NCBI GenBank assembly: GCA_963731595.1
Contig: CAVSWE010000003.1
Span: forward strand, 108,948 to 172,947
Reading direction: 5' to 3'
Length of the DNA stretch: 64,000 nt
Source of the DNA: an uncultured delta proteobacterium
GTDB lineage: Bacteria > Myxococcota_A > Polyangia > Polyangiales > Polyangiaceae
This document shows, piece by piece, positions 29,333-29,470 of the stretch. The translations under genes were made by a program, and so were the position numbers. The notes beneath the pieces were generated by a model. The model ran no database searches and had not been told where the DNA came from. It saw only the letters and a program-made list of their open reading frames with translations. Each line of letters opens with the position of its first letter. Within the stretch, counting starts at the first letter, position 1.

Positions 29333-29470
29333 GAGAGATTGAACAGGAAGATCAAAAGATCAGAAGGCCCGAGCAAAAGGAACTTTTGTGCGGAGCCACG
29401 CGCGTTCCCAACAAAAATTCTCTCTTTATTCGACCCTTTTGACCTTCTGATCTTCCTGTTTCTCTCTCTC
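29333..29470. repeat. MITE-like intergenic element copy 1 (terminal inverted repeats, AT-rich core)
   Basis: Left end gagagattgaacaggaagatcaaaagatcagaagg. Right end ccttctgatcttcctgtttctctctctc is its reverse complement. The core is far more AT-rich than the genome. Fills the gap between convergent stops 29324(+) and 29486(-). A second copy lies at 37429-37532. Confidence 0.55.

Follow-up and report, generated by a model that had tools for sequence, protein, structure and literature searches.

A dispersed palindromic repeat family with a modular arm, found between genes of Polyangiales genomes

In a 64,000-nt stretch of DNA from an uncultured member of the Polyangiaceae (the window), we identified two copies of an element that probably belong to one dispersed, non-coding, palindromic repeat family of the Polyangiales, in which an arm is the unit, arms are arranged in inverted doublets and copies spread to new intergenic sites. 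The repeat is dispersed, palindromic, non-coding and restricted to a lineage; its insertions are polymorphic at orthologous sites, and its arms are homogenised within genomes. A first-pass annotation of the window had described copy 1 as a member of an inverted-repeat element family. It is indeed not a one-off hairpin, as about 36 further arms headed by the same 18-mer are present in 14 Polyangiales genomes, which makes it a family of many soil myxobacteria. The family is apparently new, within the well-known class of bacterial intergenic palindromic repeats; its modular arm is unusual, and apparently no new principle is involved. No publication on the family was found, either with the sequence string or in the literature on myxobacterial and Polyangiaceae repeats and on REPIN/RAYT systems.

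Copy 1 reads exactly as had been described, as a 138-bp element with terminal inverted repeats and an AT-rich core. It runs from GAGAGATTGAACAGGAAGATCAAAAGATCAGAAGG at the left end to CCTTTTGACCTTCTGATCTTCCTGTTTCTCTCTCTC at the right end and forms a near-perfect hairpin with some mismatches; its centre includes the inner GAwTTTTKGGG-type module of both arms (Table 1). The GC content is 0.545 at copy 1 and 70.7% on average in the window, where only eight stretches fall below 50% GC, the two longest being copy 1 and copy 2. The RNA folding suggested in the first-pass annotation yielded a stable hairpin on both strands, with -75.3 kcal/mol on the plus strand (z -9.3; 0 of 200 shuffles equally good) and -88.7 kcal/mol on the minus strand (z -11.2); as single-stranded DNA, the element folds with -36.4 kcal/mol (z -5.9). 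Copy 1 begins 8 nt past the TGA of the lipoprotein open reading frame and ends 15 nt from the stop of the cytochrome c gene, so that it occupies 138 of the 161 intergenic bases. Its placement between these two stops was correctly read, as supported by third-position GC (GC3) and Pfam; GC3 also supports the genes flanking both copies as real. The elements have no coding capacity (104–138 nt in the window, 70–280 nt elsewhere), and the description of a small, non-coding element between real genes stands. The 7 nt just outside copy 1 on either side (29326–29332, GCTGCCC; 29471–29477, GGGCGTG(C)) are complementary and give a longer stem. Such flanks also occur at two other loci (L015 and L035), the other copies being without them, and those of copy 1 could reflect insertion into the loop of a small pre-existing hairpin.

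Copy 2 had been reported to have the same ends as copy 1. This holds for the 18-mer, which is identical in the two copies, and for the right ends, which match, but copy 2 is decayed and its left arm is truncated. Because of this truncation, its hairpin (-38.6 kcal/mol, z -4.5) is weaker than that of copy 1. Copy 2 overlaps both neighbouring stops, the TGA at 37428–37430 and the TCA at 37531–37533. The 18-mer GAGAGATTGAACAGGAAG occurs twice in the window (0 of 100 shuffles), and a sequence-only covariance model of the arm recovered exactly four arms in the 64 kb, forming the two doublets, and nothing else below E = 0.8.

Table 1 Coordinates of the two element copies, their parts and their flanking genes in the window
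Feature	Position	Strand	Description and evidence
Lipoprotein gene, 3' part	28514..29324	+	Open reading frame 27795–29324; GC3 ≥0.9 coding signal from ~28550; lipobox LVAC; ends 8 nt before copy 1
Copy 1, complete doublet	29333..29470	.	Two inverted arms and palindromic centre, 138-nt hairpin; folds, inverted repeat I14
Arm A of copy 1	29333..29369	+	18-mer GAGAGATTGAACAGGAAG, then ATCAAAAG, ATCAGAAG, G; arm model R1 match 29329–29369, 36.4 bits, E 2e-10; exact 18-mer match
Centre of copy 1, AT-rich	29370..29430	.	Imperfect palindrome, ..GGAACTTTTGTGCGG.. pairing with ..CCCAACAAAAATTC..; folds and comparison of arms across loci
Arm B of copy 1	29431..29470	-	GAGAGAGAGAAACAGGAAG ATCAGAAG GTCAAAAG G; variant without TTG; R1 match 29431–29470, 22.2 bits, E 7e-6; arm alignment A2
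Cytochrome c gene, 501 aa	29486..30991	-	Pfam Cytochrom_C 2.7e-15; convergent with lipoprotein gene
Lipoprotein-like gene, 323 aa	36459..37430	+	GC3 0.90, orthologues; last two bases of TGA are the first two of copy 2
Copy 2, decayed doublet, 104 nt	37429..37532	.	Between T of TGA stop (+ gene) and A of TCA (TGA) stop (- gene); empty-site comparison
Arm A of copy 2	37429..37454	+	Cut off after one GAAG unit; R1 match 37426–37454, 27.8 bits, E 1e-7
Arm B of copy 2, full length	37481..37532	-	GAGAGAGAGAAAAACAGGGGG ATCAGAAG ATCAGAAG GGATTTTTTGGGGGGG; R1 match 37481–37531, 22 bits, E 8e-6
155-aa gene	37531..37998	-	GC3, orthologues; first two stop bases (TCA on + strand) are the last two of copy 2

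The arm consensus was built from 53 arms. Each arm consists of a variable (GA)n stretch, the 18-mer, two to four tandem 7–8-nt GAAG+N3–4 units and then G-GATTTTKGGG, for a length of ~45–60 nt; it is purine-rich, not self-complementary and without GTAG. An ungapped arm profile in nhmmer missed diverged arms, and a covariance model was therefore used instead. The first-pass annotation had proposed searching relatives for the ends, and we scanned the exact 18-mer in 185,579 species-representative genomes, the source genome not being among them. This gave 65 loci, 31–32 of which have the same arm architecture, following the 18-mer in every case. They come from 14 Polyangiales genomes, including that of the cultured Labilithrix luteola, which are labelled in taxonomy as Polyangiaceae, Polyangiales, Myxococcales or delta/Proteobacteria metagenome-assembled genomes (MAGs). 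The remaining half or so of the 65 loci are lone, unrelated matches in other phyla, mostly intragenic, and none has the arm architecture. The family ranges over at least two families of the Polyangiales. The 18-mer owes part of its apparent conservation to ascertainment, since the scan used the exact sequence; partner arms, which were not picked by the exact 18-mer, still keep (A/T)ACAGG(A/G)AG.

The possibly incomplete MAGs yielded one to nine exact 18-mer matches per genome, with the maximum in SMAG_U6120 (nine on six contigs); the window has two doublets in its 64 kb. Arms occur as ~24 inverted doublets (0–170 nt between arms, 70–280 nt in total), as ~10 single arms and, at L025, L030, L035, L038 and L043, as clusters or tandem arms. 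A doublet can form an imperfect hairpin of 30–100 bp, and folding is strong on both strands in all doublets. A Logan short-read contig (L066), whose cytochrome gene is identical to that of the window, breaks off inside arm B, 39 nt beyond the stop of this gene, and arms also lie at contig ends in L023, L043 and L046. Breaks of short-read contigs inside arms are the expected effect of a multi-copy repeat on assembly.

The N3–4 spacers of the GAAG units differ by genome: they are ATCA/GTCA in the window, SMAG_U5184 and SMAG_U2550, ACG/AGG/GGC in SMAG_U6120, GCGC in SMAG_U4938 and GGGG/GGTG in SMAG_U209. Over the variable 22 nt, identity between two arms stands at 0.68 both for partners in one element and for arms from different elements of one genome, and drops to 0.52 for arms from different genomes. 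As the arm units are homogeneous within a genome and different between genomes, the family multiplies, or is homogenised, inside each lineage. In a mini-hairpin alignment of 20 doublets, 90.8% of the cells were paired, against 83.6% in shuffles and 42–57% in slid controls, and double-sided changes numbered 42 cells, compared with 18 in shuffles; none of 500 shuffles reached the pairing or the change values. Pairing is thus kept while sequence changes, at the level of genome subfamilies and not of individual hairpins. Compensatory evolution specific to each element was considered and rejected, as an arm resembles its partner no more closely than it resembles arms from other elements in the same genome; with equal identity within elements and within genomes, the covariation reflects genome subfamilies and is not proof of selection on each hairpin. 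A bias of G-U pairs by strand, looked for among the doublets as a sign of RNA function, showed no consistent pattern.

No relationship is seen between the centres of different copies, be they copies 1 and 2 or other copies within one genome. The conserved multiplying unit is therefore either the arm or a master doublet with fast turnover of its centre. One doublet (L021) combines arms from two subfamilies, which speaks against the copying of whole doublets in every case.

Syntenic loci of relatives, found via the cytochrome c protein, allowed filled and empty sites to be compared. At site 2, the window reads ...GCGCTCCGC T[GAGAG...CTCTC]A GGGGTAGTCGG, with CGC before the T and the 104-nt element in brackets. 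The closest relative (L067, 88% cytochrome identity) reads ...GCGCTGCGT TTAG GGGTAGTCGG... at the same place, with CGT before TTAG; the convergent genes have overlapping stops there, and there is no element. This site is empty in four relatives (L067, L070, L073 and L074), with 0–53 nt between the genes overall and 5–53 nt in the last three; the spacers of L070 and L074 contain small GC hairpins. In L068, 967 nt at this site hold two arms and an inserted gene. This region (L068 4146–5110), at the position of copy 2, has a 23S_rRNA_IVP gene (four-helix bundle, PF05635) flanked on both sides by (GGCCGN)n hexamer repeats and by two arms of the family in the same orientation, and looks like a small inserted cassette.

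Site 1 is filled in three genomes, namely the window, L068, where the element is ~280 nt long and has another palindrome nested within it, and L070 (11497–11614), where the ends of a diverged copy provide both stop codons. The L070 cytochrome open reading frame is five codons longer and stops at the TGA inside ATTGAC, and the convergent OPT-family gene takes its stop from the TCA at the end of the element. Site 1 is empty or has other sequence in at least eight orthologous loci (L067, L069, L071 and L072–L077/L086); L069, L071 and eight metagenome orthologues are without an element. Several repeats of other kinds were seen downstream of the cytochrome gene, a site that holds different repeats in different genomes: a 21-nt tandem array of 7.5 units of GCCTTCTCGACTTGGTGGCGA takes the place of the element in L067 (11535–11692), long palindromes of GCGTGC/GCGTGG hexamers lie in L072 (2754–3111), and the nested palindrome of L068 (11802–11955, ..TTTGCGTCGGCAAAGGGCCGGCGCAAA..) belongs to a second palindrome family.

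Arms are present at both sites in the window and in L068, and there is none in 21.5 kb of L067, which is the closer relative. This pattern indicates either two independent gains or one gain followed by precise loss, and both histories fit. Either way, elements come and go over the time in which species diverge. The insertion between genes proposed in the first-pass annotation is therefore borne out by the empty orthologous sites, together with the genome-specific subfamilies and the contig breaks inside arms.

The same annotation had suggested a non-autonomous transposable element of the miniature inverted-repeat (MITE) type. A classical MITE would be an internally deleted DDE insertion sequence that moves by cut-and-paste or copy-paste; the transposase would bind its terminal inverted repeats and leave a short target duplication, the candidate target here being of the IS5 type (TNA or YTAR). 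The elements are small, non-coding and present or absent between relatives, with both empty and filled sites, and they share terminal inverted repeats, both arms being headed by the 18-mer or its variants; to this extent the suggestion holds. In addition, the asymmetry between arms A and B recurs in several copies of window-type genomes, and the TTAG of the L067 empty site fits YTAR. The TGA...TCA of the window could even be two diverged 3-bp copies of a TNA target, derived from TTA. However, this requires two substitutions at one site and is seen at no other copy; an IS5-like duplication is conceivable at this one junction only and was not adopted. Two features that define MITEs were sought without success in the loci examined, namely target-site duplications and a longer relative with a transposase gene. 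No consistent direct repeat was found beside the ~24 doublets, in a comparison weakened by the fuzzy (GA)n ends and by the 12–20% divergence of the compared genomes. The one clean pair of empty and filled sites, at site 2, has the element placed between T and A and no duplicated bases.

As for a transposase relative, no longer element with the family ends around a transposase or recombinase gene was present in the ~400 kb of loci, nor in the searched plasmids, phages and IMG/VR, and no pair of arms enclosed a transposase-sized gene at any locus examined, which leaves a classical MITE without a parent insertion sequence in these loci. A blastn search of the element gave no match in 72,556 plasmids and 50,697 phage records. 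The 16-mer scan of IMG/VR gave 117 matches, all in unrelated coding sequence and almost all in viral contigs of lower GC, none with the arm architecture. The unrelated interiors, even within one genome, the singlets and tandem arms and the mixed-subfamily doublet also argue against the internally deleted insertion sequence, and we consider this origin unlikely. Strict MITE status is not established.

The organisation of the family seems to resemble that of REP, BIME and REPIN sequences more than that of a deletion-derived MITE, because it is based on arms, occurs as singlets, doublets and clusters, lacks a duplication and has a housekeeping neighbourhood. In Enterobacteria and Pseudomonas, these sequences are mobilised by RAYT (Y1 HUH) transposases, and the REP/REPIN unit is an imperfect palindrome of 20–40 nt with a conserved 5' GTAG. 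Similar to the Polyangiales family, they have a short arm as the unit, which occurs in singlets, hairpin-forming inverted doublets and clusters; they are extragenic beside housekeeping genes, form genome-specific families, lack a target duplication and are patchy among relatives. The Polyangiales arm differs in being 45–60 nt long and non-palindromic, without the 5' GTAG and with tandem GAAG+N3–4 units; the spacer between arms is 0–170 nt and specific to each copy, no RAYT or other partner gene was seen in the loci examined, and the host belongs to the Myxococcota. Judged from its sequence, the family would work like a REPIN but is not classed as one, as its arm lacks GTAG and is not self-palindromic.

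Two other kinds of elements are comparable. The Correia elements of Neisseria and the ERIC/IRU elements of enterobacteria are MITE-like and 100–160 bp long. Like the Polyangiales family, they fall in a range of ~100–170 nt, form a long imperfect hairpin, are intergenic and show insertion polymorphism among relatives; they are co-transcribed with flanking genes, as the Polyangiales family very likely is. However, they share no sequence similarity with the Polyangiales family, which occurs in at least two families of one order and combines a conserved 18-mer with genome-specific inner arms. Correia elements moreover duplicate TA and have conserved interiors, whereas no duplication was seen in the Polyangiales family and its interiors are not conserved. 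Integron attC sites are also imperfect palindromes of 60–140 nt, with conserved ends and variable centres and with homogeneity within a genome. This identity was rejected, as ATTGAAC/GTTCAAT depart from the RYYYAAC/GTTRRRY core in their fourth base, and as the copies are scattered between housekeeping genes and not in cassette arrays, with no integrase seen.

Among twenty genes next to elements, sixteen belong to housekeeping or metabolic families in Pfam and four had no match; none is a transposase. They include Gln/Glu-tRNA and Ala-tRNA synthetases, MurB, GatB, NuoH, HflX, AdoHcy hydrolase, MetE, Fur, rubrerythrin and acyl-CoA synthetases. With crude gene calls based on GC3, ~17 doublets had classifiable neighbours, of which 7–8 were convergent, 5–6 tandem and 2 divergent; convergent sites look over-represented among the doublets, though they are not required. 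Most copies lie directly after a stop codon.

It was also suggested that copy 1 is a bidirectional terminator or a small RNA. The former can be extended to an element selected by the host, as a bidirectional terminator, an insulator or a stabiliser of mRNA 3' ends, kept for this function and inherited vertically without being mobile. Consistent with such a role, both window copies and the convergent doublets just counted often lie a few nucleotides from both stops, their stems have very high stability on either strand, the 3' side being rich in pyrimidines, and the small GC hairpins in the empty sites of L070 and L074 make it seem as if the element had taken over their position. Intrinsic terminators, too, are stem-loops between convergent genes, purine-rich on the 5' side and pyrimidine-rich on the 3' side on both strands. 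However, the stem of the family is 5–10 times longer, no U-tract follows a short GC stem, and the sequence is common to unrelated loci. On either strand, the T-run of each arm comes before the inner stem (on its 5' side), the reverse of the order in a terminator, and consensus scans found no canonical intrinsic terminator and no sigma-70-like promoter in either window copy. Tandem and divergent contexts and single arms also occur, the closest relatives have no element at the corresponding sites, and genome-specific subfamilies are not expected of independently conserved terminators. The suggestion of a bidirectional terminator thus finds no positive support, and a non-mobile element kept for a function at 3' ends appears quite improbable.

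The small-RNA reading fared no better: no Rfam family matched the window at gathering thresholds, the E-value mode applied to the element gave only chance-level miRNA and snoRNA hits (E ≥0.12), and there is no consensus promoter. A discrete small-RNA gene, or alternatively an array of binding sites for a DNA- or RNA-binding protein of the host that would read the periodic GAAG (a regulatory or nucleoid-associated protein, for instance), the hairpin being incidental, is the least probable of the explanations and can almost be dismissed. The strict 7–8-nt period of GAAG beside a conserved 18-mer is what such an array would offer, as are the five or six single arms that lie just upstream of gene starts in sense orientation. 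However, the bases between the GAAG units vary by genome, positions are not conserved between relatives, both orientations occur, and the missing promoter-like site and Rfam family weigh here as well.

One of these single arms, at L073 7935–7977, covers the last codons and the stop of a gene similar to that of the Major Vault Protein (MVP) and ends ~20 nt short of the cytochrome gene, which starts with GTG. Other single arms also have the purine strand first toward the start of the downstream gene, and the SD-like GGAAG runs of such arms might matter for downstream starts.

Returning to a dispersed family that spreads by its arms, the elements would be non-autonomous and moved by a putative enzyme acting in trans, with the conserved 18-mer as its recognition site. 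The T|A junction without duplication, the arm as the unit and the singlets beside doublets point to a REPIN/RAYT-like or another non-duplicating mechanism and not to cut-and-paste of a deleted insertion sequence. The tandem GAAG units may be auxiliary sites for the enzyme or slippage-prone filler. Their position directly at stop codons makes it very likely that the elements are transcribed, and copies after stop codons would become part of 3' UTRs. The long stem (40–60 bp) could then hinder 3' exonucleases or, between convergent genes, read-through, or be a substrate for RNase III. REP, ERIC and Correia elements are analogues for such effects of stems at 3' ends, and a passive effect of the RNA hairpin in 3' UTRs is plausible on these grounds. 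Any effects at the RNA level would be secondary to the spread of the element.

A bolder version of this proposal, which we regard as doubtful though worth stating, is that the arm is the recognition module of a mobilisation system of the Myxococcota, either a domesticated REPIN/RAYT-like enzyme or a non-duplicating recombinase. The 18-mer would be its anchor, the GAAG+N3–4 units would co-evolve with the enzyme in each genome, and the hairpins would have been co-opted as 3'-end modules that give stop codons and insulate convergent genes.

From a biological perspective, the Polyangiales are a major source of natural products, with genomes that rank among the largest in bacteria, yet their repeat content is almost undescribed. 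The arm consensus provides a marker that explains breaks of short-read assemblies at these sites, and the insertion polymorphisms allow strain typing. The family also flags 3'-UTR hairpins that may affect the expression of neighbouring genes for aminoacyl-tRNA synthetases and of murB, gatB, nuoH and fur. The most interesting points are the mobilising activity and the meaning of the genome-specific GAAG+N3–4 units; if a cognate enzyme exists, this would be a repeat–host relationship of the REPIN/RAYT type in a new phylum, with a different repeat architecture.

Finally, other features of the window deserve mention. Directly upstream of the cytochrome c gene, a 1398-aa open reading frame (31008–35204, minus strand) has the domains of a eukaryotic-type Major Vault Protein (MVP_shoulder 1.7e-26, Vault_3 and Vault_4), and the pairing of the MVP-like gene with the cytochrome c gene is kept in L067, L068 and L070. 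Two repeats within coding sequence are unrelated to the family: a GC-rich one with a 15-nt period (CCGCCGCCGCCCGCG...) at 17886–18102, and the many diverged internal repeats of a 3122-aa open reading frame at 53113–62481.
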